The notes beneath the pieces were generated by a model. It searched no databases. It saw only the letters and a program-made list of their open reading frames with translations, and had not been told where the DNA came from. From NCBI GenBank assembly GCA_002068415.1, contig MVZM01000001.1, forward strand, positions 140,597 through 204,596: DNA of 64,000 nucleotides, in the 5' to 3' direction. The number at the start of each line of letters is the position of its first letter. Position 1 is the stretch's first letter. The stretch comes from Tenericutes bacterium ADurb.BinA124. GTDB taxonomy: Bacteria; Bacillota_I; Bacilli_A; ML615J-28; CAG-698. Positions 8,082 through 64,000 of the stretch are shown piece after piece. The translations under genes were made by a program, and so were the position numbers.

Positions 8082-9908
8082 ATGAATTTTAAGGAATTTG
8101 AAGAAAGAATCAGCAATATCAATAACCAGATTTTTGCTTTTTTCATGCAAATTGAGGAAGAGGAGAATAAGCAAATTAATGATGTTTTTCAATCCTTAAA
8201 ACAAAACCTCGATTCCCAAAAAAACATTCTTGTTGATTTTGAAAGGCAACTAAAAGAGGATGATGATCAATATCAAAGTAAAATTGCTGCTTTGGAAAAA
8301 GAAATATTAAATATTGCTAGCGAACCCGAAACTTATTTACATATCTTGGAAGAAAAAAAAGCTTTTCTAAGCCAAAAGAAGAATGATGAACAAAAACGTA
8401 TTTTGGCTTTACAAAGGCGGCGTCGCAGTGAATTTGCCCATCGCATCAACACTCTAAACAAGGAATTGTCGCTTTTATTAAAGGAACATAATAATCAATT
8501 AGAAGAAGAAGAAAAAAACTATAAAGCCAAAGAAACGGAATTAATGCGCCGAATGAATATTGATTTGCAAAAGGCGAATGAAAAAACGGTCAAGGCGTCC
8601 AGCGATTTAGAAAAACAACTTCTTGAAACCAATGATTTAAGCGGGATTGCGGAAATCAAAAAGAAAATTGTAGCCATTCGGACTGAAGGCTTTAAGGAAC
8701 AGGAAAGCATCAAAAACAAATATGAATTTTCCTTTATTGAAAACACCTTGGATTTTAAACGCTTTTACGAAAAGATTTCCTTGGATAATGCTTTAACGCA
8801 AGAAGATTTTGCGGTTAAGATTAAAGCACTCGAAAAACAAAGGAATGATTTAGAATTAGCGGAGCAGCTGGAGTTTGCTTTATTTGGTTTTGAATTGGAT
8901 AAACAATATAACGAATGGGAAAAAGAACAAAATTTACACGCCATTGAATGGCAAATCCAAAATTTTGCTCAACAAATGCTTATTAAAAACCAAATTCAAG
9001 ATGAAAAACATCAATATGATTTGCATCATTTTGAAAATAATAAAAACTATCTTCAAAAAGCTCATGAAGTCGATACCATGCAATTTGCATCATATCGACC
9101 CTTGGAATTATTAATTTCTAATAATATCAAAAAACAATGCGATTGCTTGCTAGAAGGTCTTGCGGACTGCATTGAAATATTCCAAGCCCATTTAATTGCG
9201 ATTGTGGAAAATACTTGGAATTTAAAAAAGAGTTTGCGTAATGATTTATCGAAGTTTTTATTGGTGACCATTAAAAACGAATTGCCGCTCATTGAACCTC
9301 ATTATAGCCATGAATTGACGAAAATTGAGCACTTTTGTTTAGAATATTATAAATTACAAAACAAACGATTTAAAAATTTTTTACGGTCTGTTGCTTCCCA
9401 AGCCCACAATTTACTTCAAGAAGTAAAAGCAACCATGGCTATTTTTAAAAATTACTATCTTGAGGAACAAGCTTACCGAGAAGAAATGGACAAAAAAATG
9501 AATTCGTCGTTATTAAAGAGTTATGAAAATGCTTTGCTTTATTTAGCGGGTGATTATCATCAAGAAGAAAATAACGAAAAAAATTATCATCGCCAAGTCC
9601 AAGACGAAAAGGAAAAACATCGTTTGAGTATGGAATTAAAAAAACAAACGGCGATGAAACTTTATCATGACCAACTAAAAGCCATTGAAGAAAAAAGTAA
9701 AAAGGCGACTTTGGAAAACCAACGATTAGTTGCCGATGAGGAAAACAATTATCAATTATTTATTAAAAATTCCAAACAAAAACAATCAGCTTTTAAACGC
9801 GATTTTAGTGATCATTTAATTCTCCATGAGCGTTCTTTGGATAAACAATATCGTTTGGCTTTACAAAGGAACGAAAAAGAGCGTAAAGCTAAAATCAAAG
9901 CATTATAA
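8082..9908 (+). CDS. 608-aa K/E/Q-rich coiled-coil protein, function unknown
   Basis: Long uninterrupted ORF with heptad-like charged repeats and no enzymatic motif. It sits where rpsP-rimM-trmD-rplS normally follow ffh. Confidence 0.5.
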   Translation: MNFKEFEERISNINNQIFAFFMQIEEEENKQINDVFQSLKQNLDSQKNILVDFERQLKEDDDQYQSKIAALEKEILNIASEPETYLHILEEKKAFLSQKKNDEQKRILALQRRRRSEFAHRINTLNKELSLLLKEHNNQLEEEEKNYKAKETELMRRMNIDLQKANEKTVKASSDLEKQLLETNDLSGIAEIKKKIVAIRTEGFKEQESIKNKYEFSFIENTLDFKRFYEKISLDNALTQEDFAVKIKALEKQRNDLELAEQLEFALFGFELDKQYNEWEKEQNLHAIEWQIQNFAQQMLIKNQIQDEKHQYDLHHFENNKNYLQKAHEVDTMQFASYRPLELLISNNIKKQCDCLLEGLADCIEIFQAHLIAIVENTWNLKKSLRNDLSKFLLVTIKNELPLIEPHYSHELTKIEHFCLEYYKLQNKRFKNFLRSVASQAHNLLQEVKATMAIFKNYYLEEQAYREEMDKKMNSSLLKSYENALLYLAGDYHQEENNEKNYHRQVQDEKEKHRLSMELKKQTAMKLYHDQLKAIEEKSKKATLENQRLVADEENNYQLFIKNSKQKQSAFKRDFSDHLILHERSLDKQYRLALQRNEKERKAKIKAL

Positions 9909-13704: not shown

Positions 13705-14625
13705 ATGAAAAGAATCGGCTTTGTTTTTGTGTTATTATGGGGAATTGTTTTGGTAGGCTGTTCAGGAAACCAAGTTTCTCCCCATGAAGAGGAAATTGTT
13801 TTTCATTTTCCTGATGAATATTTAAGTTATCTACCTTATGAAGAGGTTCCGGATTATCATTTTCATTTTCCCGGCATTGTTAATACGATTGATGCAGCGA
13901 CGACAAGCAATAAAAAAGTTTTTGGGAAGAATGATGATTTTGTTATCAGCGCTTTGTTAGCAGATTTATTTTCCCAGTATGAACAAAAAAACCGCTTTAC
14001 TACCCGACTATTGTTAACGCAAACGGCTTTTGAAACGCGAATGAACACTTTAGAGACGGATGATGAAGGTAAACCATACCAAAAATCTCATATTTTAAAA
14101 GTGGAAGACGGCAAGATATATGAGGAAATTGCCTATATATTACTAGAAAACGGCTTAACTTTAAGTTTTGAGTATCGCCGGTTTGCCACTAAAATCGATG
14201 GTGTCATTACGATGATGTATTGTTGGAAATACACAACCCCTTTAAATGCTGTTTTGCATTATCCCCTCATTATTCATCAACTGGATGCCAACACCAAGGA
14301 ATTATTGATTGTTCCTTTGCCTTTAAAATCGGTTTATCGGCTTGGTTTAAATGATAAAATTCCCCTTAAAACCTTTCTTGAGAAGGATGAATTTTTAAAG
14401 CCGCTGTATGCTCGCTTTTATTATCCTGATTTTAATGAAGATCCCCGCTCCAGTGATATCTTTGATTTGGAAGGTAATATTGCGCAAGTCAAACAATATT
14501 ACCAAGATTACCATCAAGGCCAAACTCTTGGCGAGCATTTTGTTTTTTCCTATTTAGGAAAAACCTTTAAAGTTGTTTTTGAAACGGATGCTTTCATCAT
14601 TCAGTTATATGAAGAAAGCGTTTAA
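13705..14625 (+). CDS. Putative lipoprotein, function unknown
   Basis: Signal peptide with lipobox LVGC at residues 16-19; no recognisable domain. Confidence 0.55.
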   Translation: MKRIGFVFVLLWGIVLVGCSGNQVSPHEEEIVFHFPDEYLSYLPYEEVPDYHFHFPGIVNTIDAATTSNKKVFGKNDDFVISALLADLFSQYEQKNRFTTRLLLTQTAFETRMNTLETDDEGKPYQKSHILKVEDGKIYEEIAYILLENGLTLSFEYRRFATKIDGVITMMYCWKYTTPLNAVLHYPLIIHQLDANTKELLIVPLPLKSVYRLGLNDKIPLKTFLEKDEFLKPLYARFYYPDFNEDPRSSDIFDLEGNIAQVKQYYQDYHQGQTLGEHFVFSYLGKTFKVVFETDAFIIQLYEESV

Positions 14626-14737
14626 ATATTATTTGTGATAAAAAAACCGTTGAAATTCAAATTAAATTATTTCTTTTTCTGTTTCTTTATGATATAATCA
14701 ATTAATAAATAGATATTAACCTACATAGGAGGAACTT

Positions 14738-15883
14738 ATGTTTAGTCAAGACGCATTTAATGAAAAACCAGTAATTAGAGTTGTTGGTGTTGGTGGTGGT
14801 GGCGGTAATGCCGTCAATCGCATGATTGAAAATGATGTCAAAGGGGTGGAGTTTATTGTTATCAATACTGATGCCCAAGTTTTGCGTCTTGCGAAAGCCG
14901 ATACGCGTTTACAAATCGGAAAACAACTGACGCGTGGCTTGGGCGCCGGAGCTGATCCGGAAATTGGCCAAAAAGCCGCTGAAGAATCCGAAGATGAAAT
15001 CCGGGAAATCTTAAGAGGCAGCGATATGGTTTTCATCACCGCTGGCATGGGTGGGGGAACGGGGACGGGTGCAGCGCCCATTGTGGCGAAAATCTCCAAG
15101 GAATTGGGCTGTTTAACCGTCGGTATCGTTACTAAACCCTTTTCCTTTGAAGGTCGCAAACGCCAAGCGCAAGCTATCCGTGGTTTGGAGCGCTTAAAAC
15201 CGCTTGTTGATACCTTGATTGTGGTCCCGAATGACAAATTATTATCCATGACCGATAAAAACACGCCGATGTTGGAAGCTTTCCGTGAAGTTGATAATGT
15301 GCTTCGTCGCGGGGTGCAGGGGATTGCGGAAATTGTCGCTATTCCCGGTTTAATCAATGTTGACTTTGCCGATGTGCGCACCGTTATGCGTAATAAAGGA
15401 ACGGCATTGATGGGGATTGGGATTGCCTCCGGACCAAATCGGGCTGTTGAAGCCGCTAGAAAAGCCATTCGTAGCCCGCTTCTGGAAATTGATATTAATG
15501 GAGCAACGGATGCCATTGTCTTTATCACCAGTGATGTGGATATTGCCATGCAAGAAGTTGTGGAAGTTATGACGGAAATTCAAAATGCTTCGTCTTCAGA
15601 AATTGATTTAGTTTGTGGAACAGGTTTCAATATGGACCTCCAAGGTGAATTAATTGTAACCGTGATTGCCACGGGTTTCGATGCCAAAGAGATTCCGGAG
15701 GAAGAACAAGCTAATGCCGGTTTCCCTAGCTATAAACCAATTGAAAAGGAAGTAAAACCGACTTTTGTTCCGGAACCAAGTATTGAAATGGGAAAACCAG
15801 CCGATTCGCCCCAAGTGGAAAAGAAAGAACGCATTAAAGGCGATACGACCATTCCCGCTTGGTTAAAAAACCGTTTTAAATAA
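14738..15883 (+). CDS. ftsZ: Cell division protein FtsZ
   Basis: [13 protein letters not shown] tubulin signature. Extended -10 promoter (tgatataat) upstream. No ftsA upstream. Confidence 0.95.
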
Positions 15884-22652: not shown

Positions 22653-23693
22653 TTGCAAACTTCAATCTATAATTATGCCAAAGACCAATTAGAACAATAT
22701 TTTCTAAGTATTGATAGCCCTAAATTTCGGGCTACTCAGGTTTTTGAAGCCGTTTATAAACAAAGGCTGACGGATTTTACTAAGATGAGCAATTTTAAAA
22801 AAGAATTTGTTGGCAAATTACAGGATGATTTTTATTTTTCCCAATTGAAAGTTGTGAAAGTCCAAAGCTCTGAAGATGGAACAAAGAAAATTCTATATCA
22901 GCTTGATGATGGCAATTTAATTGAAACGGTTTTAATGAAAAATAATTATGGCTACAGTGTGTGTGTGACCACCCAAGTTGGCTGCAACATGGGTTGTGCT
23001 TTTTGCGCCAGCGGTTTAACTAAACGAGTGCGTAATTTAGAAACAGCGGAAATGGTGTTGCAAGTTTTAACGATTGACAATTGCTTGCGTGAGCAAAATG
23101 AACGTGTTAGCCATGTGGTGATTATGGGCATCGGCGAACCCTTTGATAACTATGATAATGTGCTTAGTTTTATTAAAATCATTAATGATGGAAAGGGTTT
23201 AGAAATTGGTAGTCGCCATATTACCTTATCAACTTGCGGTATTATTCCGAAAATCTATCAATTTAGCGAATTCCCGTTGCAAGTTAATTTAGCAGTGTCT
23301 TTGCATTTTGCTACCGATGAAAAACGCAGCCAGTATATGAAGATTAATCGTAGTTATAATTTAACGGAATTAAAAAAGGCCTTGCAATACTACTTTGCCA
23401 AGACCAAACGGCGGATTACTTTTGAATATATTTTACTTGATGGGATTAATGATAGTTTAGAAGATGCCAAATTACTGCTTGATTATGTGAGGGATATGAA
23501 TGCTTATATTAATTTAATCCCTTATAATGAAACCGGGAAGCAGTTTAAACGGTCAAAAGATGGTCGCTCCCGTTCCTTTTTTGATTTTTTAATGAAAAAT
23601 AAACTCCAAGTGACCTTAAGAAGAGAACAGGGCCATGATATTGATGCGGCTTGTGGTCAATTACGTGTAAAGGAACTCTTATGCAAGGATTAG
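22653..23693 (+). CDS. rlmN: 23S rRNA / tRNA m2A methyltransferase RlmN (radical SAM)
   Basis: CNMGCAFCASG radical-SAM cluster motif. TTG start 6 nt after AGGAGAGG. Confidence 0.9.
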   Translation: MQTSIYNYAKDQLEQYFLSIDSPKFRATQVFEAVYKQRLTDFTKMSNFKKEFVGKLQDDFYFSQLKVVKVQSSEDGTKKILYQLDDGNLIETVLMKNNYGYSVCVTTQVGCNMGCAFCASGLTKRVRNLETAEMVLQVLTIDNCLREQNERVSHVVIMGIGEPFDNYDNVLSFIKIINDGKGLEIGSRHITLSTCGIIPKIYQFSEFPLQVNLAVSLHFATDEKRSQYMKINRSYNLTELKKALQYYFAKTKRRITFEYILLDGINDSLEDAKLLLDYVRDMNAYINLIPYNETGKQFKRSKDGRSRSFFDFLMKNKLQVTLRREQGHDIDAACGQLRVKELLCKD

Positions 23694-24541
23694 TCATCAA
23701 ATCACTAAGTGGTGATTTCACCGTTTTTTCTAACCATCAAAATTATATTTGTAAACCTAAGGGTTTATTTAAATATCAAGAAAAACTAGTGAAAGTTGGC
23801 GATAAAGTTGTTTTTGATCCTGAAACTTTGATAATCGATGAAGTTCTCCCTCGCAAAAACGATTTAATTCGGCCGGCAATCGCTAATATTGATAAAATCT
23901 TTTGCGTTTTTTCCGTTAAAGAACCGGAATTAAATCTTAATTTGTTGGATCGCCTGCTATCAATCTTCACTTATCATAATCTTCATTGTCTTATTATCTT
24001 CACCAAATTAGATTTATTAACTGATTATCAAGATATTGATGTGCTTATTCAGTATTATCAAAAGATTGGTTATGCGGTTTATACTTCCGCCAGTGCATTG
24101 GACTTAGAGGCTATCAAAAAGGAAATTAGTCAATCCATTTGTGCCTTTGCCGGCCAAAGCGGGGTAGGCAAAAGCACCTTGCTCAACCTTTTTGATGAAA
24201 GCTTGAATATTAAAACGGATGTTATTTCTAAAGCTCTAGGTCGAGGGAAGCATACCACTCGACATGTGGAGTTACTACCCTTGTTTGACGGTTGGGTGGC
24301 GGACACCCCCGGGTTTGGGACGGTGGATTTTTCCTTTGATGATTTATTGAGTTTTTCGCATTCGTTTGTGGAGTTTTTTCATCATTCCTCGTCTTGTAAA
24401 TACCCCAAATGTTTGCATTTAGAAGAACCGGATTGCTTTATTAAAACGATGGTTCAGAAGCATGAGATTTTACCAAGTCGTTATGAAAACTATGTTCTTT
24501 TTTCTCAAGAAATAAAACAAACGCTTAAAAACAAATATTAG
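23681..24541 (+). CDS. rsgA: Ribosome small-subunit-dependent GTPase A
   Basis: OB domain, circularly permuted GTPase (GQSGVGKSTLLN), C-terminal Zn-finger Cys. Confidence 0.85.
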   Translation: MQGLVIKSLSGDFTVFSNHQNYICKPKGLFKYQEKLVKVGDKVVFDPETLIIDEVLPRKNDLIRPAIANIDKIFCVFSVKEPELNLNLLDRLLSIFTYHNLHCLIIFTKLDLLTDYQDIDVLIQYYQKIGYAVYTSASALDLEAIKKEISQSICAFAGQSGVGKSTLLNLFDESLNIKTDVISKALGRGKHTTRHVELLPLFDGWVADTPGFGTVDFSFDDLLSFSHSFVEFFHHSSSCKYPKCLHLEEPDCFIKTMVQKHEILPSRYENYVLFSQEIKQTLKNKY

Positions 24542-44743: not shown

Positions 44744-45693
44744 TCACTCGCGATAGTTTTTAATAATTGTTGGCAAAATCCCTCGATTGTAAATTTCATT
44801 TATAGATTCAATGCATTCCAAATATGTTAATTTTTGATGAACTAATGTCGTTGTTACTGATTCATAATCTTCTTTATATGGGTTCGTGTTTACGATTTCA
44901 TGTAAAATTGATTGCGGATTTTCACCTGGATTACAAGAGAGGTTTTGTTTCCCGTGAATCTGTCGATCTTTTATGACATCATCGATAATGTTTTCAATTA
45001 ATTTTTCATCTATTAATTTACTAGTCCACATTTTATGTAAATCATAGATGTGTCTTGAATGTCTAAAATATTTTTTTTGTAGATGGTAATCACAAATTGC
45101 AAACAACTTATCAATTAAAGTTCTTTCGATTGTTTGAACTAACATTTTAAATGGTTCAAGATGATATTGTTTAATTAAATTCATTTGGTTGTTTTTATTT
45201 AGATACTTAGTAATGTAATTACTTACTTCCATTTCTTTGACTGGATAAGGTTTATAAACTACAATTGTTTCAACAATTATAAATGGTACTGTATTTTGTT
45301 CTTTTTCAAAGTGATTACTGAAGCCAATACGGTACTCATTATGATCTTTTCTTGAGAGAACATCATTATGATTAAGTAATTCCATTTTTAATGTCTCAAT
45401 AATTTGCAATATATCTGCTTTTAGTTGTTTTCTTTGCCCTTGCGTTACTTGTTTATTATTAAATCTTATTGCTAAATCAATATCCTCTGAAAACTATCAA
45501 TTACATCATAACATTTTGATAATGATGTTCCTCCTTTAAACACAACTTGGATATTTGATTTAAGTTTGGTTAACTCTTTCAAAAACAAAGACACAAAATA
45601 ATCTTTTTCAACTTGAAATTCACTTAATCCGTATTCCTCTGCTACCGTTTTGATAATTGTTTCAAATATTTCCTTATGATTGTGTAATTGCAT
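44744..45693 (-). pseudogene. abiEii: AbiEii/AbiGii-family nucleotidyltransferase toxin (type IV TA / abortive infection), disrupted by a -1 frameshift in an A4 run at 45490-45493
   Basis: N-terminus has FKGGTSLSKCY; restoring one A gives …DSFSEDIDLAIRFNNKQ…QGQRKQLKADILQIIETLK…, continuous with ORF 44744-45409. Confidence 0.65.
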
Positions 45694-46348
45694 TTAATCC
45701 ACCTATCTTATAAAACTTTACTTGTGCTTCTAGCGGATATGCTGATAATATCTCTTCCACTTCTTGTTCTTTTAAATCAATGGTACTTAAAAACGATAAT
45801 ATTTGCGTTGATGATTTCTTTAAATCATACTCACTATACTTCTCAAAGTTATTTAATAAATCTAGTACTTGGAGTAGTTTATAGTTTTTATTATTCACCA
45901 TTACTCTTGGAGCATTTACGATTACTCGATTGTTTTTGATTTTTATTTCTCTTTTTTTATTTGAAACTTGATTTGAATAGATTGTTGAAACAACAGCTAT
46001 TTGTGATGTAAGTCCAAGTTGGTTTGCAAAGTTAATTCCACTTTCGTAACCAATTCTTATACCAGAATCATTAAATATATACTTCTTTTGAATCACATCA
46101 CTCACATAGACTGTTGTCTTTCCGAAAATGCTACTTTTATTTGGTAAGCCATAAACACCTTTGTCAAGTTTTTCAAGTTGTCCTGATTCAGTAAATCTTT
46201 TAAAAATTGATCTTATCGTCCCCTTGCTAATATTAGGAAATTCTTGATAAATATCTTTAACAAAAATAGGAGTTTGTTTATCATAATTATTCATAATATA
46301 GTTTAGGATGTTATCCTTCGTTTTTAATGCTTTCATTATTTTTATCAC
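45674..46348 (-). CDS. abiEi: AbiEi-family antitoxin / transcriptional regulator
   Basis: N-terminal winged-HTH-like region (…ISKGTIRSIFKRFTESGQLEKLDKGVYGLP…). Directly upstream of abiEii with a 20-nt overlap. Confidence 0.6.
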   Translation of the reverse strand: MIKIMKALKTKDNILNYIMNNYDKQTPIFVKDIYQEFPNISKGTIRSIFKRFTESGQLEKLDKGVYGLPNKSSIFGKTTVYVSDVIQKKYIFNDSGIRIGYESGINFANQLGLTSQIAVVSTIYSNQVSNKKREIKIKNNRVIVNAPRVMVNNKNYKLLQVLDLLNNFEKYSEYDLKKSSTQILSFLSTIDLKEQEVEEILSAYPLEAQVKFYKIGGLNAITQS

Positions 46349-54362: not shown

Positions 54363-55505
54363 ATGAAATATTTATTTACTTCAGAATCTGTTACTGAAGG
54401 CCATCCCGATAAGGTTTGTGACCAAATTGCTGATGCCATTTTAGATGCGATTTTAAAAGATGATGCTCATGCGAAAGTGGCTTGTGAAGCTGTTGCAACA
54501 ACGGGTTTAGTCCTTGTTATGGGGGAAATCACCACCACAACTTATGTCGATATTCAAAAGATTGTGCGGGAAACCGTGGCTGCCATCGGTTATGATCGTG
54601 GGAAGATTGGCTTTGATGCGGAAAATTTAGCTGTTTTAGTATGTGTTAACGAACAATCTCCCGATATTGCCAATGCTGTTCGGGATGGCGAAGGAGCGGG
54701 TGATCAAGGCTTAATGTTCGGTTTTGCCTGCAACGAAACAGAAGAACTAATGCCCTTACCGATTAGTTTAGCTCATAAATTAGCCAAACGCTTGGCCGAT
54801 GTGCGCAAGGCCGGTCTTGTTGATTTTCTAAGACCGGATGGAAAATCACAAGTGACGGTTGAATATGATGATAATCGTGCCGTTCGGGTTGACAGTGTGG
54901 TTATTTCCACCCAACATAATGAGCAAGTTAAACTAGAAACTTTGCAGTCCTTTATTTTAGAACAAGTCATTAAACCGGTCATTCCCGCATCTTTACTTGA
55001 TGAAAAGACCAAGTATTATATTAATCCGTCGGGGCGCTTTGTGATTGGGGGACCGAAAGGTGATTCCGGCTTAACCGGTCGCAAAATCATTGTTGATACT
55101 TATGGGGGTTATGCTCACCATGGTGGTGGAGCTTTTAGTGGCAAAGATGCCACCAAAGTTGATCGCAGTGCTTCCTATATGGCTCGATATATTGCGAAGA
55201 ACTTGGTTGCTGCCAAAGTGGCCACTAAATTGGAAGTCGGCTTAAGTTATGTTATCGGCATGAGTGAACCAACCTCTGTTTTAGTCAATACTTTTGGCAC
55301 CAGCTCATTTAGTGATGAAGAAATTGTTAGAGGCATCCGTCAGTTGTTTGCTTTAACACCGCAAGCCATTATCACAACCTTGGGTTTAAGAAGACCAATT
55401 TATCAACAGCTTGCTGCTTATGGTCATTTTGGGCGTTCTGATTTAGATTTGCCTTGGGAAAAACTGGACCGCGTTAATGATGTGAAAAAACATTTTAATT
55501 TATAA
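54363..55505 (+). CDS. metK: S-adenosylmethionine synthetase
   Basis: [17 protein letters not shown] and GGGAFSGKD signatures; ribosome-binding site AAGGAGAG. Confidence 0.95.
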
Positions 55506-55510
55506 ATTTG

Positions 55511-55543
55511 AAAAAAACCGCTTCTTTAAAGGCGGTTTTTTGA
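55511..55543 (+). terminator. Rho-independent terminator after metK
   Basis: aaccgc-ttctttaaag-gcggtt stem followed by a T-run. Confidence 0.6.
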
Positions 55544-55629
55544 TTAAAAAACAAATATTTCGTAAAAAATGAGGGTTTAATCTAGAATTATAGTTGATGA
55601 TGTGCTATAATAAAATGTAAACGTTTTTC

Positions 55630-56520
55630 ATACTGACAAAAATAAAAGTGGAGGAAAGTAATTTAAGCCCGTCAGTATGCAAGGGTTTAAGTTATTAGAA
55701 ATGTATGCGTAAATTTTCAAAATTAGTCGTTCTATGCTTGACCTTGGTGATGGCTCTTTTCTTAGCATCTTGTAAAGAGACAATTGAACTAAGCTTTGAA
55801 AACGAAACGATGACGATGATTGTTGGTGATACGAAAACATTAGTTCCGGTGGCCAACAAAGAAGGTTTAACTTATGAATGGACGTCGGATAAAACCGCAG
55901 TTGTTACGGTTGATGCCGGGCTTGTTACCGCTGTTAGTGCGGGGACGGCTAAAGTAACTGTCAAGGTTAAAGACAAAGATGTCAGTGCGACCATTACCAT
56001 TACGGTTAATCCTGTCGTCATTAGTTTTACGGAAAAAACGATGACCATTGCCATCGATCAAAGCGTGACTTTAACGCCAACGGTTGTGCCAGCCCAAACG
56101 ATGACTTATACCTGGACAACTAGCGATGCAAGTGTGGCGACGGTTACTAACGGTGTTGTTAAGGGAATAAAAGTCGGAACAGCGACGGTTACAGCATCGG
56201 GGAAGGGTGGAAGTGCTTCCATTACAATTAATGTTGTTTTACCTAATCCGACCCAAGTAACGATTACTGGGGCATCGGCAAGTGCTAAAGTTGGCGCTAC
56301 TATGCAACTTGGAGCAACAATCTTACCAGCGAAAGCTTCCCAAGCTGTTACTTGGAAATCAAGTGATACCAAGCTGGCAACGGTTTCCGCAAGCGGTTTA
56401 GTGACTTTCGTCGGTGTTGGTAAAGTGACCATTACGGCAACATCGGTCGCTTTGGATAGCCAAAAGGCAAGTGTGACCATTGATGTTGGGGCTCCTGATC
56501 CGACTAAAGTAGCGATTACC
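55630..56520 (+). repeat. 891-bp segment identical to 61687-62577 (copy 1: leader plus 5' end of lipoprotein gene 1)
   Basis: Identity checked at both ends and through identical embedded ORF translations. Divergence starts abruptly at 56521/62578. Confidence 0.85.
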
Positions 56521-59500
56521 GGGGCTTCTACAACCGCTAAAGTTGGCGATAAAATGCAACTTAGCGCTACGGTATTACCGGCTACAGCTTTACAAACTGT
56601 TGCTTGGAAATCAAGTGATACCACATTGGCAACTGTTACACCAGCCGGTTTAGTGACTTTCCTTGGCATGGGAAGTGTTACCATTACCGCGACATCTACC
56701 GTTTTGAATACTCTTAAAGCAACAGTGACCATTGAGGTTGGCGCTCCCGATCCAGCAAGCATTGCTGTTACCGGCACTGATGGCAAGGATCGAGTTATTA
56801 TTGGTGAAACCTTGCAAATGCTTGCGGTTGTTTCTCCGGAACTAGCTAATCAAGGTGTAAGATGGTCAACCTCGGATGAAACCATTGCGACGATTGATGA
56901 AAATGGTTTATTAAATGCTTTGAAAGTCGGAGAAATTACTGTTATTGCGACTTCAACAGTTTTAGAAACAGTGTCTGGTCAAGTGACCATTAATGTGGTT
57001 CTTCCTGAACCGGTCGGTATTGAGGTAAAGGGTGATGAATCTGTTCTTCAAGTTGCGGAAACGGTTCAGTTAACTACGGTTATTCAACCATTACATGCTT
57101 CACAAGAAGTCATTTATTCTTCGAGTGATGAAGCAATCGCCACGGTTTCCGAAAGTGGTTTAGTTACCGGTGTTAGTGCTGGTACGGCGGCGATTATTGT
57201 TAAGAGTAAGGCTTTAGAAACCGTATTAATGACTTACACAGTTAAAATTGTTGCCAAGATTGAAAATCCTGATTATTCTCATATTTTAGTTGATGCTAAT
57301 TTGGAAGCTGAACGTTATTCAACGCTTACTTTTGATGGTGTTGATTACATTGTTGGTATCAATGCTTTCAAATCATTAGCACAAGGCTTTGGAAAAATCG
57401 TTGAAGGTTCAACGGTTATGATTCTTGCTGGAACTTATGAAGAAGCCGCTGCTGTTAACTTTAACAATGTCACGATTCTTGGTCCTAATGCCCTTATTAA
57501 TCCGGTAACTGATTTAGAATCGCGTTTGCCGGAAGCAATTCTTACTAAGAAATTGACATTAGGTGCTGTTCAAAATATCGTTATCAAAGGGATTGAATTG
57601 ACCGCTCAAGGGCAAATTTACTCTGCGAAAAACTTGAAAAACATCACAGTTGAAAATGTCTATACGGTTTATTCTTCCGTTGAGGCCGCTCAAGGGGTCA
57701 TTTATTTCGGTATTTCCGATGATAGCTTGAAAAATGAAGACTTATTATTTAAGAACAATTCCTTGAATGATACGAGAAAACAAGGTTATCGGGGAATTCG
57801 TGTTAATAATGCCTATAATATCACGATTGAAGGCAACTATTTTTATGGTTTCTTTGATACTATTCGTTTAGAAGGAACGGGTAATAGCGGCTGGACGCAA
57901 CCCGGAACTGGTTGTGGGGCTGCGGGAGTTGTTTTAATCCAAAACAATACTTTCCGGATGAATATCCAATATCCAATTCTTCTTGGCCGTTACAGTGCAA
58001 CAAAAGTTGACATTTTAAATAATGATATCGGTGTTGACCCGGATCATAGCGGTGTTTATGGCTTAACGAACATTATTAACTTTGCTCCGGAAGCCGGTGC
58101 TCCAAAAACCGTTGTTAACATTAAATACAATAATTTCTTACACAACACTGCTTGGCATGATGTTCGTTTCAAAACGGGAACGGCTACGGCTGACCAACTA
58201 GAAATCAATGTTAACTTCAACAAATTTAATGAAGGAGTTTGCATTGATCCGACTGATGGACCATGTAATTATATTGACAATGGTGGGACAAGTGCTTCCA
58301 AAAACAACATCATTAACGGTCAATTTAACTATTTCGCCGTTAAACCGATTGAAGATGAATTCCGTGGTTTGAATGACAAGGGCTTTGCTCCTTATTATCT
58401 TACTTTGGAAGAATACAACGATGCTTTAACAGCATACTTCGTTGATCCAAGCTTGGTTGGTAAAGCTGGCGGTGATGCTGTAGTTGTCCAAGGTCTTAAC
58501 TTAGTCTTTGGCGAACGTGCTTTCGCAACCCTAGCTTCCGCTTTAGAAGCGGTACCGGCAAAAGCGACGATTATCGTTTTACCGGGTACTTATTCGGAAA
58601 AGATTACGATTGACAAAGGTGTGACCTTAAAGACTTTGAATGCCAATGTTAATCCAACAGAAGATGCGACCGCTTTCTTGGCTGCTTCGCCAACGGCTAC
58701 TATTTCCAATGAAGTATGGTATATCAAAGATGATGCCAATACAAGTGTTAATGACCTCACGATTAAGGGCTTTACTTTTACGGGTGGTGCGCGAATCAGT
58801 GAATATGGCGCTTCCGGCAATCAATATCGTTTCTTGTATGAAAACAATTATGCTTTTGACACAACGGCTCCGACCCTTGCTTGGAAACAGGACGCTTATT
58901 CTTCATATGGTGTGGGAACCGAAGCTGATACCGCTAAAGTTCCTGGTTTCATTAGCTTAGCTCCTAATGGTTTGTGGATGTATAATGTCGTTTTCCGCAA
59001 CAATAAATTCGTTAATGTAAAAGACACGAATATTTACTTAATGTGCTTACAAGGCGTAACGATTGAAGGTAATGAATTCTCGGGTGGTGACCGTGATGCG
59101 ATTCGTTTAGAATACGGCTCACAAGGTGGAATCTTCAACATTAAGAATAATACCTTTGAAAATATGAACTACAATGGTATTTATATTAGATCTTATAGTG
59201 GTAGCATTTATGCTCCGGATTTTGTTGCTAATATTTATTATAATACTTTCAAGAATGTCGGCTTGGCCGGGGCAACGGAAACACCAACACATACGAGAAT
59301 TGGCGCGATAGCAACAAGAGGCTATGGCGAAAAAATGAACGCTACTTTCAACATTCGCTATAATGCTTTTGAGAACTGCACCAATTATATTAGTTTACGT
59401 GCCAATGTCTCTAATGTTGAGAAATGGAATGCGGGAACGAAAAAGTGGATGGCTACGATTGAGTACAACTCCTTCATCGATGCTGATGGCGTTACCAAAT

Positions 59501-61578
59501 ATTTCCAAAACTTACTTAATGCTGGCGATACTGCTGCAACTAATGTCGATGATGTTTATATTAATTATAACTTCTACGGCACCGATGCGAATACGAAAGC
59601 CATAACCACGCTTGAACAATTTGATCATCATAAAGTGGCGGCCAGCAACTTAGTTGTTTACAATACCCTGGCAGAATTAGAAGCCGGAAGAGCTACTTCC
59701 CTCATTCCTGCTTCCGTTGTTGTCACGGGAAAAGCTGAGCTGAAAGGTGGCGAAGTGGCCAACTTTAGTGCGACAGTTCTTCCGAATACCGCTCCGCAAG
59801 ATGTTGTATGGAGTACATCTAATGCTAGTATTGCGATTGTTGATGAAAATGGCAAAGTAACGGGATTGAAACCGGGAACTGCAAAAATTAAAGCAACAGC
59901 TAAAGATTTAGATACTGTTTTTGGGGAATTTGATGTTACGGTTGAAGGTGTGCTGACTGCTAGTTTCTTAGTTGATGCTGAAACAGCAACGATGGAAGAA
60001 CTTGCGAAAGTAACTTATGGCGGCAAAGATTATTATGTCGGCGTGAACGCTTTTGATACTTTAGCAAAAGCGATGGCCGTTGCTGATACTGGTACAACTA
60101 TCTATGTCAATAAAGGGACTTACTTAGACACTGATGCGATTACCATTAATAAAGACAATCTTTCACTTTTAGGACCGAATGCTAATATTGATGGTGTTAT
60201 CGGTGCTCGCGGTGATGAAGCAATTATCAACAGCAAGATTACCCTTGCTAGCGGCGTTAAAAATGTCGTTATCAATGGTTTCTATTTCAATCACAAGCCG
60301 GGTACTTGCGTTGTTACCGGTGAAGCTGCGGGCTTAATTGATGGCTTTAAGTTCATTAATAATATTGTTGATGGCTATGGCGGTGATGGTAGCAGTGGCT
60401 TCATTGTCTTCAAACAAGCAAGTGCTGAAGCTAAAATAATGAACTTCACCATTAGCCATAACAAATTCTTCAGTTTCGGCTCAGATCGGATAGTCCGGAT
60501 GGCTTATGTAGAAAACCTAATCTTCACCAACAACTTACTCCTTGATGCTTCGACGGATGGGCTTCGTTTACACGATAATGCCGGCGGCATTATGGGCACA
60601 TTGCAGATTGTTGGTAACACCTTTAACAATGTTGGTCAATTCGCTGTCTTTATTGGTACATCAGCTTGTACGAGCATCGTTATTACCGATAACAATTTTG
60701 TCAGCAACGGTCATGTATATGATGGTGCTGCACTTTCCCTTCGCAAAACCGGCGTTGATGCCGCTGGAACAACAATTTTAATCGCTAATAACTTCTTTGA
60801 TCGCAGTTCCGATTATGATATTCGGATTGATCATAGTGCTGTTGAAGCTGATAATCTAGTAATTACCGTTTCCGGAAATGTCTTCAAGACCGCTCCTAAG
60901 CGCTTCTATTATTATAACAATATTTCCGATCCAGTTCCGGCAGTTAAGACAAACTTTACGGGCAATATCATTTATGCGGCTGACGGTGTTACCGTAGCTG
61001 ATCCGGCGACGGTCGCTGATAAGATTAAAAATGCGACGGTTGCTGATGCTAACCCAGCTTTAGACTTATTCTTTAGTGAATATGGCGAAGGCTCAAGCAA
61101 TAACAAGTGGTTGGAAATCTATAACCCAACTAATGCCGCTATTGATTTAAGTGGCTACAAAGTAGAACTATATACCAATGGTAATACTAATGTTCAAAAC
61201 AGCTTAACCTTCCAAGCCGGAACCATGCTGGCAGCCGGCGATGTCCTCTTAATTGTCAATGATAAAATCGAGGCTTCCCAAAAATTACCGGGAGCTATCG
61301 AAAGCAATGTTACTTACTTCAATGGTAACGATGCCCTTGTCTTGAAAAAAGGCGATGTCGTAATTGATATTATCGGTTTAGTGGGCAATGATCCAGGAAC
61401 TAACTGGGCGGTTGGTGTCGGTGCAACTTCGGAATACACCCTAGTTCGTAAATCTTCTTATGCTGGACTTCCGTTAACCGTCTTTGCTCCGGAACAATGG
61501 GATGTTTACCCGCAAAATTATTTCGGGAATATGGATAGCCATGCCTATTTACCGGCTTATGTAGCTCCGGCTTCATAA
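55705..61578 (+). CDS. Giant surface lipoprotein (1957 aa): lipobox, about 8 Big_2 Ig-like domains, beta-helix I, Big_2, beta-helix II, C-terminal lamin-tail domain
   Basis: - Signal peptide …LFLASC.
- Repeated about 85-aa …TVKVGDTxxL…VxWxSSD…ATVxxxGxVTAVxxGTAxITA units.
- PbH1-type repeats (NNTFRMN, YNNFLHN, YNTFKN, RYNAFEN).
- C-terminal …LFFSEYGEGSSNNKWLEIYNPT…GYKVELY… lamin-tail fold (about 61051-61575). Confidence 0.7.
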   Translation: MRKFSKLVVLCLTLVMALFLASCKETIELSFENETMTMIVGDTKTLVPVANKEGLTYEWTSDKTAVVTVDAGLVTAVSAGTAKVTVKVKDKDVSATITITVNPVVISFTEKTMTIAIDQSVTLTPTVVPAQTMTYTWTTSDASVATVTNGVVKGIKVGTATVTASGKGGSASITINVVLPNPTQVTITGASASAKVGATMQLGATILPAKASQAVTWKSSDTKLATVSASGLVTFVGVGKVTITATSVALDSQKASVTIDVGAPDPTKVAITGASTTAKVGDKMQLSATVLPATALQTVAWKSSDTTLATVTPAGLVTFLGMGSVTITATSTVLNTLKATVTIEVGAPDPASIAVTGTDGKDRVIIGETLQMLAVVSPELANQGVRWSTSDETIATIDENGLLNALKVGEITVIATSTVLETVSGQVTINVVLPEPVGIEVKGDESVLQVAETVQLTTVIQPLHASQEVIYSSSDEAIATVSESGLVTGVSAGTAAIIVKSKALETVLMTYTVKIVAKIENPDYSHILVDANLEAERYSTLTFDGVDYIVGINAFKSLAQGFGKIVEGSTVMILAGTYEEAAAVNFNNVTILGPNALINPVTDLESRLPEAILTKKLTLGAVQNIVIKGIELTAQGQIYSAKNLKNITVENVYTVYSSVEAAQGVIYFGISDDSLKNEDLLFKNNSLNDTRKQGYRGIRVNNAYNITIEGNYFYGFFDTIRLEGTGNSGWTQPGTGCGAAGVVLIQNNTFRMNIQYPILLGRYSATKVDILNNDIGVDPDHSGVYGLTNIINFAPEAGAPKTVVNIKYNNFLHNTAWHDVRFKTGTATADQLEINVNFNKFNEGVCIDPTDGPCNYIDNGGTSASKNNIINGQFNYFAVKPIEDEFRGLNDKGFAPYYLTLEEYNDALTAYFVDPSLVGKAGGDAVVVQGLNLVFGERAFATLASALEAVPAKATIIVLPGTYSEKITIDKGVTLKTLNANVNPTEDATAFLAASPTATISNEVWYIKDDANTSVNDLTIKGFTFTGGARISEYGASGNQYRFLYENNYAFDTTAPTLAWKQDAYSSYGVGTEADTAKVPGFISLAPNGLWMYNVVFRNNKFVNVKDTNIYLMCLQGVTIEGNEFSGGDRDAIRLEYGSQGGIFNIKNNTFENMNYNGIYIRSYSGSIYAPDFVANIYYNTFKNVGLAGATETPTHTRIGAIATRGYGEKMNATFNIRYNAFENCTNYISLRANVSNVEKWNAGTKKWMATIEYNSFIDADGVTKYFQNLLNAGDTAATNVDDVYINYNFYGTDANTKAITTLEQFDHHKVAASNLVVYNTLAELEAGRATSLIPASVVVTGKAELKGGEVANFSATVLPNTAPQDVVWSTSNASIAIVDENGKVTGLKPGTAKIKATAKDLDTVFGEFDVTVEGVLTASFLVDAETATMEELAKVTYGGKDYYVGVNAFDTLAKAMAVADTGTTIYVNKGTYLDTDAITINKDNLSLLGPNANIDGVIGARGDEAIINSKITLASGVKNVVINGFYFNHKPGTCVVTGEAAGLIDGFKFINNIVDGYGGDGSSGFIVFKQASAEAKIMNFTISHNKFFSFGSDRIVRMAYVENLIFTNNLLLDASTDGLRLHDNAGGIMGTLQIVGNTFNNVGQFAVFIGTSACTSIVITDNNFVSNGHVYDGAALSLRKTGVDAAGTTILIANNFFDRSSDYDIRIDHSAVEADNLVITVSGNVFKTAPKRFYYYNNISDPVPAVKTNFTGNIIYAADGVTVADPATVADKIKNATVADANPALDLFFSEYGEGSSNNKWLEIYNPTNAAIDLSGYKVELYTNGNTNVQNSLTFQAGTMLAAGDVLLIVNDKIEASQKLPGAIESNVTYFNGNDALVLKKGDVVIDIIGLVGNDPGTNWAVGVGATSEYTLVRKSSYAGLPLTVFAPEQWDVYPQNYFGNMDSHAYLPAYVAPAS
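56253..56768 (+). repeat. Internal tandem duplication of a 258-nt Big_2-domain unit (2 copies, about 80% nt identity)
   Basis: Units 56253-56510 and 56511-56768 encode near-identical 86-aa Ig-like domains. Confidence 0.5.
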
Positions 61579-61592
61579 TCATGCTCAAGACT

Positions 61593-61627
61593 AGTCCTAA
61601 AAGGTAAGCCTTTTGGGACTTTTTTTA
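61593..61627 (+). terminator. Rho-independent terminator after lipoprotein gene 1
   Basis: agtcctaaaagg-taag-ccttttgggact followed by T7. Confidence 0.6.
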
Positions 61628-61686
61628 TTGAAAGAAAATAAGTAGTTATCTAAGATTTAATATGTTATAATTGATACGGAAAAATA

Positions 61687-62577
61687 ATACTGACAAAAAT
61701 AAAAGTGGAGGAAAGTAATTTAAGCCCGTCAGTATGCAAGGGTTTAAGTTATTAGAAATGTATGCGTAAATTTTCAAAATTAGTCGTTCTATGCTTGACC
61801 TTGGTGATGGCTCTTTTCTTAGCATCTTGTAAAGAGACAATTGAACTAAGCTTTGAAAACGAAACGATGACGATGATTGTTGGTGATACGAAAACATTAG
61901 TTCCGGTGGCCAACAAAGAAGGTTTAACTTATGAATGGACGTCGGATAAAACCGCAGTTGTTACGGTTGATGCCGGGCTTGTTACCGCTGTTAGTGCGGG
62001 GACGGCTAAAGTAACTGTCAAGGTTAAAGACAAAGATGTCAGTGCGACCATTACCATTACGGTTAATCCTGTCGTCATTAGTTTTACGGAAAAAACGATG
62101 ACCATTGCCATCGATCAAAGCGTGACTTTAACGCCAACGGTTGTGCCAGCCCAAACGATGACTTATACCTGGACAACTAGCGATGCAAGTGTGGCGACGG
62201 TTACTAACGGTGTTGTTAAGGGAATAAAAGTCGGAACAGCGACGGTTACAGCATCGGGGAAGGGTGGAAGTGCTTCCATTACAATTAATGTTGTTTTACC
62301 TAATCCGACCCAAGTAACGATTACTGGGGCATCGGCAAGTGCTAAAGTTGGCGCTACTATGCAACTTGGAGCAACAATCTTACCAGCGAAAGCTTCCCAA
62401 GCTGTTACTTGGAAATCAAGTGATACCAAGCTGGCAACGGTTTCCGCAAGCGGTTTAGTGACTTTCGTCGGTGTTGGTAAAGTGACCATTACGGCAACAT
62501 CGGTCGCTTTGGATAGCCAAAAGGCAAGTGTGACCATTGATGTTGGGGCTCCTGATCCGACTAAAGTAGCGATTACT
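61687..62577 (+). repeat. 891-bp segment identical to 55630-56520 (copy 2)
   Basis: Same as copy 1; its own extended -10 (tgttataat, 61663-61671) lies just upstream. Confidence 0.85.
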
Positions 62578-64000
62578 GGGGCAAATTCCTTTGCTAAGGT
62601 TGGTGAAACGATGGATTTGAAAGCGACGGTTTTACCAAGCAAAGCATCTCAGGAAGTAACTTGGTCCGTCAGCGATGAAGCTTTAGCGACGGTTTCAAAG
62701 ACTGGCTTAGTAACTTTTTTAGGCATCGGTAAAGTAAGCATTACCGCAACTTCGGTCGCTTTGGCTAGCCAAAAAGCGACAGTATCCGTCAATATCATTG
62801 AACCGGATCCGGTGAGTATTACCGTCAGTGGAGCGGATGGAAAAACCGAACTGCAATTGGCCAAGACCTTACAAATGACTGCCGTCGTTAAGCCCGATTT
62901 AGCCGATCAAAGTGTCACTTGGTCAACTTCGGATATGTCGATTGCTTTCATTGATGAGACGGGATTGTTGACAGCTGTCAAAGTGGGAACCGTCGATGTG
63001 ATTGCGACTTCACAGGCTTTAGGAAGCCTTAGTGGCACTATTACCATTAATGTTATTTTGCCACTCCCGGAAGAAATCAATGCTACAATTCCGGAAACGG
63101 TTTTACAAATTGAAGAAACGATGCAATTATCAGCGACGATTACTCCGGCTTTAGCCAATCAACAAGTCACTTACCAAACGAGCAATGAAGCAGTGGCAAC
63201 GGTTTCCACAAGCGGTTTAGTGACTGGTGTTGCGGCCGGAACGGCGACTATCACCATTACCAGTCAAGAATTATCTTCGCTTGTGAAAACATTTGAAGTG
63301 AAAATCATCAATAAATTGCCGGCGCCAAGCTCTAGTGATGTTGTTGTTGATAGTGCTTTAAAAACGGTTGAGCGTTATTCCCAGGTTGTCTATGAAAATG
63401 TCGATTATATTGTCGGCATCAATGCTTTTGCGGATTTTGGGAAAATAGTTACCCAAGAAAAAATGGCTATTTTTGTACAAGCCGGAACCTATACGGAAGA
63501 TTTAATGATTACAAGCAGTAAAGTGACCATTTTAGGACCGAATTCCGATAAGGATCCTAATAAGGATGCAAGAGTTGCCGCTGCGATAATTAGCGGAAAA
63601 ATCACCATCGAGGCTTCACTGGAATACATCATGATTAACGGCTTTGATTTTACCGGTAACGGCGCTGTTTATGGCAATGGGCCGGCTAAAAATATTTCGT
63701 TTATTTACAATAAAGTCTATGATACGGCGGAAAACACTGTTGCTTGGTCAGGCTTGAGAAACTATAATTTAGTTGGTTTCTTCACCTTCTGGAAACAAGG
63801 AAAGGTAATGGAAGACTTTGTTATCACTAACAATGCCTTTTCCAATGTCCCGCAAATCAATATCATGATGGGTAATTTACTTAATTTAACGATTAAAGAT
63901 AATACGTTTAAAGATTTTGCTCAAGACGCCATCCGTCTTGATGGGGGATATAATAGCGGATTACTGTTAGTTGACAATAATTTGTTTGCTAACACGACTT
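61762..64000 (+). CDS. Second giant surface lipoprotein paralogue (3' end beyond window): Big_2 array followed by a beta-helix domain
   Basis: Identical first 272 codons to gene 1, then divergent Big_2 units and PbH1-like repeats. No stop before the window end, which is why it is missing from the ORF track. Confidence 0.7.
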   Translation, partial: MRKFSKLVVLCLTLVMALFLASCKETIELSFENETMTMIVGDTKTLVPVANKEGLTYEWTSDKTAVVTVDAGLVTAVSAGTAKVTVKVKDKDVSATITITVNPVVISFTEKTMTIAIDQSVTLTPTVVPAQTMTYTWTTSDASVATVTNGVVKGIKVGTATVTASGKGGSASITINVVLPNPTQVTITGASASAKVGATMQLGATILPAKASQAVTWKSSDTKLATVSASGLVTFVGVGKVTITATSVALDSQKASVTIDVGAPDPTKVAITGANSFAKVGETMDLKATVLPSKASQEVTWSVSDEALATVSKTGLVTFLGIGKVSITATSVALASQKATVSVNIIEPDPVSITVSGADGKTELQLAKTLQMTAVVKPDLADQSVTWSTSDMSIAFIDETGLLTAVKVGTVDVIATSQALGSLSGTITINVILPLPEEINATIPETVLQIEETMQLSATITPALANQQVTYQTSNEAVATVSTSGLVTGVAAGTATITITSQELSSLVKTFEVKIINKLPAPSSSDVVVDSALKTVERYSQVVYENVDYIVGINAFADFGKIVTQEKMAIFVQAGTYTEDLMITSSKVTILGPNSDKDPNKDARVAAAIISGKITIEASLEYIMINGFDFTGNGAVYGNGPAKNISFIYNKVYDTAENTVAWSGLRNYNLVGFFTFWKQGKVMEDFVITNNAFSNVPQINIMMGNLLNLTIKDNTFKDFAQDAIRLDGGYNSGLLLVDNNLFANTT

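Follow-up and report, generated by a model that had tools for sequence, protein, structure and literature searches.

The question raised by this locus is what a single giant gene of Tenericutes bacterium ADurb.BinA124 contributes to the surface of its host. A sequence-only reading of the window (the whole stretch of 64,000 nucleotides of contig MVZM01000001.1 that was analysed) had proposed a 1957-aa lipid-anchored protein with nine Ig-like Big_2 domains, two beta-helix modules and a C-terminal lamin-tail domain (LTD), which together with a tandem paralogue would form an undescribed glycan-binding or glycan-degrading apparatus. The open reading frame was read from its ATG start exactly where it had been placed, and none of the domain features of its product is due to chance. 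The features of the locus are collected in Table 1.

Table 1. Features of the giant gene, its product and its tandem paralogue (positions in the window).
Feature	Position	Strand	Basis
Putative extended -10 promoter element TGCTATAAT	55603..55611	+	Upstream of giant gene, read from sequence
890-nt tract identical to 61687-62576 of paralogue	55630..56519	+	Sequence comparison
ORF, 1957 aa, ATG start	55705..61578	+	Translation, called real
Lipoprotein signal peptide, lipobox LASC (Cys23)	55705..55773	+	Translation, lipobox pattern scan
Six tandem Big_2 Ig-like domains, stalk (residues 33-518)	55801..57258	+	Pfam Big_2, repeat mapping
Beta-helix module 1 (residues 509-884)	57229..58356	+	Module profile E 3.1e-130, AlphaFold, Foldseek
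Beta-helix module 2 (residues 901-1302), extra loop insertions	58405..59610	+	Module profile E 4.3e-50, AlphaFold, alignment
Seventh Big_2 (residues 1334-1415), spacer between modules 2 and 3	59704..59949	+	iE 1.2e-9
Beta-helix module 3 (residues 1406-1769)	59920..61011	+	Module profile E 4.6e-114, Pfam, AlphaFold, Foldseek
Lamin-tail domain (residues 1784-1891; ExeM N-terminal similarity to 1944), then short tail	61054..61536	+	Pfam, NCBIfam
Intrinsic terminator of giant gene	61593..61630	+	12-bp stem then T-run
Tandem paralogue, extends past window end	61762..64000	+	Lipo-signal, Big_2 x6, one beta-helix module, no LTD

The order of the domains is lipoprotein signal, six Big_2, beta-helix 1, beta-helix 2, one Big_2, beta-helix 3 and LTD. 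Pfam matched Big_2, Beta_helix and LTD, the three types that had been named, but the domain counts proposed were wrong. For Big_2 (PF02368; 222.3 bits against a gathering threshold of 22.8, E 4.9e-67, seven stretches), Pfam and repeat mapping gave seven domains instead of nine, and the stalk could be divided into units at residues 33-104, 102-180, 181-264, 265-348, 349-434 and 435-518. The LTD (PF00932) was recovered as expected (55.3 bits against 34.3, E 1e-14). That no characterised protein presents such an architecture also held in PDB searches and NCBIfam: nothing appeared below E 1e-6 in PDB sequence searches, residues 515-1335 and 1396-1957 gave no useful match there, and no publication on such an architecture in Mollicutes turned up in a literature search.

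In the N-terminus, MRKFSKLVVLCLTLVMALFLASC, a charged n-region and a hydrophobic core precede the lipobox L-A-S-C; the segment MRKFSK-LVVLCLTLVMALF-LASC agrees with the pattern [LVI][ASTVI][GAS]C of lipoproteins of the Lgt/Lsp pathway, which upholds the lipid anchor proposed before. After the LTD there is a short tail without anchor motif. A lipid-anchored, multi-domain surface protein is supported by these sequence features. Regarding the host, its Ffh is 78-81% identical to those of Acholeplasmatales and Acholeplasmataceae MAGs, and it is an uncultured bacterium close to Acholeplasmatales. Because of this relatedness, together with two gene-order hints (rsgA directly after rlmN, and no stp/pknB there), the host is probably wall-less.

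A terminator-like hairpin of metK (about 55517-55541) lies just upstream of TGCTATAAT, which we infer to be the promoter element of the giant gene; a promoter consensus scan did not flag it. Since an Rfam scan of the whole window matched no family, the 5'UTR has no known riboswitch or leader, and the folding of this region is not compelling (z = -2.2). The gene is monocistronic and encodes a predicted lipid-anchored cell-surface fibre. The housekeeping genes around it in its own genome offer no hint of its function.

The central part of the protein was expected to contain a right-handed parallel, pectate-lyase-like beta-helix, and confident AlphaFold models agree with this: residues 505-1345 (pLDDT 84.4) and module 3 (pLDDT 87.9, pTM 0.90) are built entirely of short beta-strands. 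However, the single helix proposed at about residues 520-1300 corresponds, by the module profile and the AlphaFold model of this region, to two modules with a short alpha-helical linker between them, so that three modules are present and not two. They are homologous copies of one module of about 365 residues, mutually about 25% identical. Pfam Beta_helix (PF13229) matched the whole protein (36.2 bits against a cut-off of 25.9, best stretch 1517-1696), module 3 scanned by itself did not match it, and 10 of 24 family modules did at E<=1 (best 1.2e-9). Almost all of the Foldseek matches listed are described as beta-helix or pectate-lyase-type proteins. The nearest solved folds, all distantly similar, are PL6 alginate lyases, the RbmB lyase, the PfbA adhesin and phage tailspikes, and the best structural matches reached E 1e-6 to 1e-8, with TM 0.45-0.54 for a single module. 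What the models share with these folds does not go beyond a generic beta-helix.

The explanation that we favour, with a confidence slightly short of even, is that the giant protein would be a surface glycan-binding, possibly glycan-degrading fibre. The acylated N-terminal Cys would hold the fibre in the membrane, which in a probably wall-less host is the only one and would leave the protein directly exposed. The stalk of six Ig-like domains would bear three divergent copies of the beta-helix module, with the LTD at the distal tip. Every beta-helix would most likely recognise polysaccharide along its groove, probably at a site centred on the conserved R-x-I-R / D-A-I-R-L-E-G coils, the presumed counterparts of the Ca2+-binding NGGExIRxG coil of PL6 lyases; with such recognition, the fibre would take hold of glycans from plants or microbes, or fasten the cell to them. 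The ligand, the substrate and the activity are not readable from the sequence. Of the apparatus proposed in the sequence-only reading, the surface protein is the part that is supported, while catalysis and a multi-gene assembly are not.

A possible but distinctly less probable explanation is that the protein is a multi-catalytic polysaccharide depolymerase, in which each beta-helix would be an active lyase or hydrolase of an undescribed CAZy-like family, kept at the cell surface and releasing oligosaccharides for uptake. Enzymes head the structural matches (PL6 lyases, RbmB and also rhamnogalacturonan lyase and phage depolymerases). PL6 lyases are the best of them (E 1.5e-6 for one module), and the pair of modules 1 and 2 (bH1-bH2) aligns over about 900 columns (E 1.7e-8) with the two-domain enzymes AlyGC (5gkd) and BcAlyPL6 (7dmk), which, like chondroitinase B, have tandem beta-helix domains; TM-scores of the modules with PL6 lyases are only 0.2-0.5, and identity is 12-16%. 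Furthermore, hhalign against a PL6 protein (93.7% probability) placed DAIRLEG on GGESIRLG, with the Asp on the Glu of NGGE, so the D-x-I-R coil appears homologous to the PL6 Ca2+ coil NGGE(S/T)IR(L/V)G. In one relative the positional orthologue is followed by GH30, GH94, GH16 and LacI genes, and distant family members are fused to CE2/GDSL esterases.

Against catalysis, neither the 1957-aa protein nor its modules matched any Pfam CAZyme family. PF14592 (PL6, chondroitinase B / alginate lyase) did not match the whole protein or any of the 24 family modules, and the HMMs of GH28, pectate lyase (PL1/3/9) and pectinesterase (CE8) did not match the protein; the 24 modules gave generic Beta_helix, NosD and DUF1565 matches only, plus one weak pectinesterase match confined to an N-terminal cap. 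The residue comparison with PL6 covered the NGGE Ca2+ coil and the ExExxSxK coil, which we take, from AlyGC and chondroitinase B, to provide Ca2+ ligands (NGGE, ExE) and the catalytic Lys. The three modules carry QYPILLGR, YNGIYIRS and QFAVFIGT in place of ExExxSxK; with PF14592 also unmatched, membership in the PL6 lyases was rejected. In an alignment of 264 modules, the conserved polar positions are R 72%, E 70%, D 62%, R 57% and R 71%; the D/R positions, kept in about 60-70% of modules, could be structural. The positions invariant across modules are Gly, Tyr and the Asn ladder, with no acidic or basic residue among them. With no CAZyme match and the PL6 coil missing there is no evidence for catalysis; glycan cleavage by the modules is possible, not indicated.

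The best sequence-level match in the PDB, moreover, is the adhesin PfbA, the plasmin- and fibronectin-binding protein A of Streptococcus pneumoniae (3zpp/4mr0), a surface-anchored protein of Gram-positive type that binds through a right-handed parallel beta-helix at its core and was also a Foldseek match. The module profile reached PfbA at E 1.3e-6 over about 140 profile positions, BcAlyPL6 at 1.7e-6 (best-scoring stretch, chain residues 437-675) and a pectinesterase N-cap at 4e-5. Unlike the giant protein, PfbA lacks both an Ig stalk and an LTD and contains a single beta-helix, and its PDB name is 'cell wall surface anchor family protein', whereas the anchor here is an N-terminal lipid. The preferred fibre also shares its fold class with phage tailspikes and capsule depolymerases and, like them, would carry a glycan-recognising helix at the fibre end. 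Tailspikes are typically trimeric, an assembly at which the tandem arrangement of the modules by itself gives no hint, and the giant gene is chromosomal, with housekeeping neighbours and a lipoprotein signal. Structure matches in BFVD were only generic (E about 1e-5, TM 0.3-0.55), and PHROGs gave no match at E<=0.01 for the modules or the LTD. A phage origin was rejected on the housekeeping flanks, the conserved synteny and the lack of PHROGs matches.

The module family comprises 674 representative clusters at E<=1e-30, a size that comes from an exhaustive representative search; a word-indexed profile search gave mostly fragments, and a single-protein genome scan only 4 loci. A lipobox-like motif is present in 93 of the 159 members with a full start. 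Members are mostly Ig-stalked (Big_2 in 31 of 38 sampled), and the accessory domains vary among LTD, Flg_new (8 of 38) and Amidase_2 (11) or CHAP (2); the tip would be the exchangeable part of the family. The exact architecture was found only in a few related MAGs, always immediately 3' of metK.

The amidase-bearing members bring in another explanation, an improbable one in our judgement: a part in a contact-dependent antibacterial machinery, in which the beta-helices, tailspike-like, would attach to the envelope polysaccharides of cells nearby or strip them off, the LTD-tipped form being non-lytic or accessory. Amidase_2 and CHAP tips, the former present in the member P0011 (lipo-signal, Big_2, two modules, Big_2, Amidase_2), would cut peptidoglycan, and in a probably wall-less lineage such a hydrolase would not serve the own wall of the cell. 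Bacteriolytic Anaeroplasma exist in the rumen, which was also counted in its favour. However, the giant protein and its paralogue have no hydrolase domain, and the PHROGs result speaks against it too. We give an equally small chance to a broader conjecture, in which wall-less, Acholeplasma-like bacteria of guts and digesters would make contact chiefly through this family with swappable tips, a cell-anchored analogue of tailspikes that would grip and strip envelope or plant polysaccharides; amidase-tipped members would lyse neighbours, and gene conversion would maintain the common 5' cassette of the tandem paralogues and so allow their bodies to be swapped or lost.

The LTD leads to a reading that is somewhat less probable again, the scavenging of phospho-polymers or extracellular DNA, in which the tip would cooperate with a secreted purple-acid-phosphatase-like metallophosphoesterase encoded three genes downstream. 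The sole NCBIfam match of the protein is the LTD part of the nuclease ExeM (NF033680, 81.5 bits against a cut-off of 1300), where model positions 24-172 of 884 match residues 1786-1944, that is, the LTD and its flanking region. LTDs typically accompany nucleases and phosphoesterases (PMC6085458, PMC8289736). In addition, the Metallophos gene is kept across related loci, and P0023, a homologue of its product (E 2e-74), carries one fused beta-helix module. On the other hand, ExeM has OB-fold and EEP nuclease domains and an N-terminal LTD, whereas the giant protein has neither nuclease nor phosphoesterase domain and its LTD is C-terminal; an ExeM-like nuclease identity was rejected on the score and the short stretch of the model covered. 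A DegV gene separates the paralogue from the Metallophos gene, joined by a radical-SAM gene in two related loci (L002 and L003). The function of the LTD in bacteria is not known, and ExeM degrades extracellular DNA without needing its own (PMC6085458).

The tandem paralogue that had been noticed earlier was confirmed; it continues beyond the window and has 909 aa in a matching public contig. A shorter tandem paralogue also follows the giant gene in the closest of the related genomes. The identity between both genes is exact from -75 to +815, covering 75 nt of 5'UTR and codons 1-271, which encode the signal peptide, Ig1-Ig3 and the very start of Ig4, and then falls sharply to about 55-65%; this 890-nt identity may be overstated, since assemblers may collapse copies that are about 99% identical. 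The pattern is also present in two other species. The (near-)identical tract indicates gene conversion between the paralogues, which would keep the promoter-proximal 5' ends of both genes homogenised.

Families of variable lipoproteins in Mycoplasma (Vsp, Vlp) have a conserved 5' cassette (upstream region and signal peptide) and divergent bodies. Our locus resembles them in its paralogous lipoprotein genes, the probably wall-less host and the common 5' cassette, and differs from them in having just two tandem copies, and large folded domains instead of short repeats. The least probable explanation is that the protein serves mainly as a surface coat or antigen that has no specific ligand and varies through recombination between the tandem paralogues. 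This would fit the cassette (promoter-proximal UTR, signal peptide and first Ig domains) homogenised in three species, the orthologues that differ in module order and Ig number, and the even divergence of all domains, none being specially conserved, but only two copies exist, no phase-variable repeat, invertible element or repeat- or invertase-based switch was seen at the locus, and well-folded large modules that persist in hundreds of clusters point to binding or enzyme activity.

The term 'undescribed system' was too strong, because the giant protein and its paralogue belong to a large family and stand among housekeeping genes, not in a multi-gene apparatus. The protein is a member of a large uncharacterised modular family, and nothing shows a new kind of system. 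At present it offers a clearly bounded object for expression studies and glycan arrays and establishes no new biological principle. The likeness of the 5' ends of the two tandem genes is a small and neat example of concerted evolution, for which long reads are needed as confirmation. Finding a ligand or an activity would assign a function to a module family of at least 674 representative clusters without specific Pfam or NCBIfam model, and would show by what means uncultured Bacilli that live in ruminant guts and digesters, and are probably wall-less, attach to polymers or feed on them.

The main gene is an uninterrupted reading frame of 1957 codons, and the N-terminus of its product, MRKFSKLVVLCLTLVMALFLASC, carries a textbook lipoprotein signal with the lipobox LASC and Cys23, which supports the lipid anchor proposed in the sequence-only reading. 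The C-terminal lamin-tail domain (LTD) that had also been proposed was recovered by Pfam (55.3 bits, cut-off 34.3). Pfam placed Big_2 in seven stretches (E 4.9e-67) and repeat mapping separated them into six plus one, instead of the nine Ig-like domains counted before. Internal comparison of the protein revealed three related regions, not two, and a module profile of about 365 positions, made from these regions and their homologues, gave three full copies (bH1, bH2 and bH3) where two beta-helices had been described. The corrected architecture is a lipoprotein signal, six Big_2 domains, bH1, bH2, one Big_2 domain, bH3 and the LTD. The generic Beta_helix family of Pfam was also matched (36.2 bits, cut-off 25.9); the ExeM model of NCBIfam was matched only in its LTD-containing N-terminal part (81.5 bits, cut-off 1300). 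There are six N-terminal Ig domains in the main protein versus five in the orthologues, and Ig3 and Ig4 reflect a recent internal duplication, since both correspond to a single domain in the orthologues P0002 and P0003. In P0005, a more distant relative, the module types lie at other positions than in the main protein, an arrangement that indicates module shuffling.

Coordinates of the features discussed (window positions unless otherwise stated)
Feature	Location	Basis or remark
Main gene	55705-61578 (+)	
Ig units 1-6	residues 33-518	repeat mapping
Ig3 + Ig4	56245-56748 (residues 181-348)	
bH1	residues 509-884	module profile, E 3e-130
bH2	residues 901-1302	module profile, E 4e-50
Ig unit 7	residues 1334-1415	repeat mapping
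bH3	residues 1406-1769	module profile, E 5e-114
LTD	residues 1784-1891	Pfam
metK	end at 55505	terminator-like hairpin follows
TGCTATAAT element	55603-55611	putative, read from the sequence
5'UTR	55630-55704	
11-codon uORF	ATG at 55677	
3' terminator	61593-61620	12-bp stem + T-run
Direct repeat, 890 nt	55630-56519 = 61687-62576	main gene vs paralogue
Exact 5' identity, this genome	-75 to +815	relative to ATG
Exact 5' identity, L002	-75 to +540	relative to ATG
Exact 5' identity, L004	-56 to +569	relative to ATG
Exact 5' identity, L003 / L007	none	68% identity
Secreted purple-acid-phosphatase-like metallophosphoesterase	L001 20285-22594	~4.5 kb past window end; conserved in locus
P0005, GH30, GH94, GH16, LacI	L009 14066-19878	
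AbiEii/DUF6088 pair	44744-46348 (-)	
608-aa ORF	8082-9908 (+)	
ftsZ region	13705-15883	
rlmN-rsgA	22653-24541	

The proposal that the central regions are beta-helices was upheld by AlphaFold2 models, Foldseek matches and Pfam Beta_helix. The model of bH3 (24 module sequences) reached pLDDT 87.9 and pTM 0.90, with short strands all along, and residues 505-1345 (10 sequences; pLDDT 84.4, pTM 0.76) were modelled as two strand-only units with a short helix after each. Almost every PDB match of Foldseek was to a protein with a beta-helix or pectate-lyase-type description (PL6 alginate lyases, RbmB lyase, PfbA adhesin, tailspikes, pectin methylesterase and GH87/GH55 enzymes; E 1e-6 to 1e-8, single-module TM 0.45-0.54), and BFVD returned generic beta-helix proteins of phages and giant viruses (E ~1e-5). 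By sequence profile, the nearest solved proteins were PfbA (1.3e-6) and BcAlyPL6 (1.7e-6, best-scoring stretch at chain residues 437-675), followed by pectinesterases in their N-terminal cap (4e-5).

The main protein is perhaps a surface glycan-binding fibre, a reading that we favour tentatively; the main rival, a true depolymerase, seems rather unlikely. When 24 modules were scanned against Pfam (E<=1), Beta_helix appeared in 10, NosD in 4, DUF1565 in 3 and pectinesterase weakly in one, and no CAZyme family was matched. The comparison of the module profile with a PL6 protein by hhalign gave a probability of 93.7% and paired the module's best-conserved polar motif, D-A-I-R-L-E-G, with a PL6 coil that reads GGESIRLG there and NGGETIRVG in BcAlyPL6. 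Coils of this type are the source of Ca2+ ligands in AlyGC and chondroitinase B, and the next PL6 coil, ExExxSxK, supplies the remaining Ca2+ ligands and the catalytic Lys. At the latter position the three modules have QYPILLGR, YNGIYIRS and QFAVFIGT instead. Among 264 near-full modules Gly, Tyr and an Asn ladder made up the invariant positions, and conserved charged positions reached only 57-72%. For these reasons PL6 membership was rejected, and catalysis is not indicated. For a glycan-binding fibre, the conserved charged site, homologous to a Ca2+/uronate site, would be a reasonable place for binding. Less likely roles are those of a variable coat, of an LTD-assisted scavenger of phospho-polymers and of a device for contact-dependent attack on other bacteria.

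An exhaustive profile search for the module in 1.84 billion representatives gave 674 clusters at E<=1e-30, 4108 at E<=1e-10 and 18258 at E<=1e-3. Among the matches listed, proteins ranged from ~500 to 6600 aa with 1-14 matched stretches, and a lipobox-like motif was present in 93 of the 159 listed members having a Met start. A sample of 38 members contained Big_2 (31), Amidase_2 (11), Flg_new (8) and CHAP (2), and the LTD in none; further relatives are fusions to CE2/GDSL esterases or a metallophosphoesterase. The module is thus a widespread member of the pectate-lyase-like superfamily that has no name of its own. Close full-length relatives were few, all in 'Bacilli bacterium' MAGs (60-79% identity), and the LTD-tipped architecture is restricted to one small clade.

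The neighbours in the host genome are an ABC transporter, gltX, tldD/pmbA and metK. The slot directly 3' of metK is kept in relatives down to 40% identity, one of them of 2476 aa and with an LTD. The main gene looks monocistronic, because the metK hairpin and a putative TGCTATAAT element lie upstream and a terminator follows the stop codon. Downstream come the shorter paralogue (909 aa in this genome, six Big_2 domains and one module, no LTD), DegV and the metallophosphoesterase; DegV is preceded by a radical-SAM gene in the related loci L002 and L003, the latter also with a CBS-domain gene. P0023, a homologue of the metallophosphoesterase (29% identity, E 2e-74), combines dockerin, Flg_new and Big_2 with a single beta-helix module of the kind seen in the main protein, which links the two gene families through a domain fusion. 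At L009, P0005 has a Flg_new tip and occupies the post-metK slot; the genes that follow form a beta-glucan-type utilisation set, which is absent at the main gene's own locus. The idea of an undescribed system was not sustained, as there was no sign of a multi-gene system or of a categorically new mechanism.

The two paralogues are identical over the 5'UTR and 271 codons, and past +815 their identity falls sharply to 55-65%. A homogenised 5' tract was also found in two other species. Since the copies are identical within the genome and just 74.5% identical between species, the pattern has the signature expected of lineage-specific gene conversion. Over 18.3 kb the window departs from the public contig L001 at just 16 sites, which are the same 8 substitutions in each copy; assemblers may have collapsed two ~99% identical copies or, alternatively, there may be two strains, each with homogenised copies. 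The 5'UTR common to both paralogues contains an 8-bp inverted repeat, ATACTGAC...GTCAGTAT, flanking GGAGG, and a uORF; the stop codon of the latter overlaps codons 2-3 of the main reading frame. The RNA fold z-score of this UTR was only -2.2, and no match for it was found in Rfam.

Elsewhere in the window, a low-GC islet (GC ~0.30) with housekeeping genes on either side contains a gene for an AbiEii-type nucleotidyltransferase toxin paired with a DUF6088 (AbiEi-like) gene; the pair is probably a small mobile module for toxin-antitoxin function or abortive infection. The 608-aa ORF adjoining ffh, Lys/Glu-rich, coiled-coil-like and with no Pfam family, lies in a low-GC (0.32), AT-skewed stretch.

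With regard to the host, Ffh showed 78-81% identity to proteins from MAGs labelled Acholeplasmatales and Acholeplasmataceae. In walled Firmicutes rlmN is usually followed by the stp/pknB pair; here rsgA follows directly, with no stp/pknB between. The ftsZ region has no ftsA or mur neighbours, and 5' of ftsZ there is a 306-aa lipoprotein (lipobox LVGC, no Pfam match). Both surroundings fit a wall-less, Acholeplasma-like host and, together with the kinship of Ffh, they make it probable that the host has no wall. UBA2253, the genus label of one relative, turns up in ruminant faecal surveys. The sequence-only reading had pointed to something real, with details in need of correction, and the main protein is best seen as a new variation in architecture within a known class, the beta-helix surface proteins with an Ig stalk. 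If the host is wall-less, this lipoprotein would be directly exposed.
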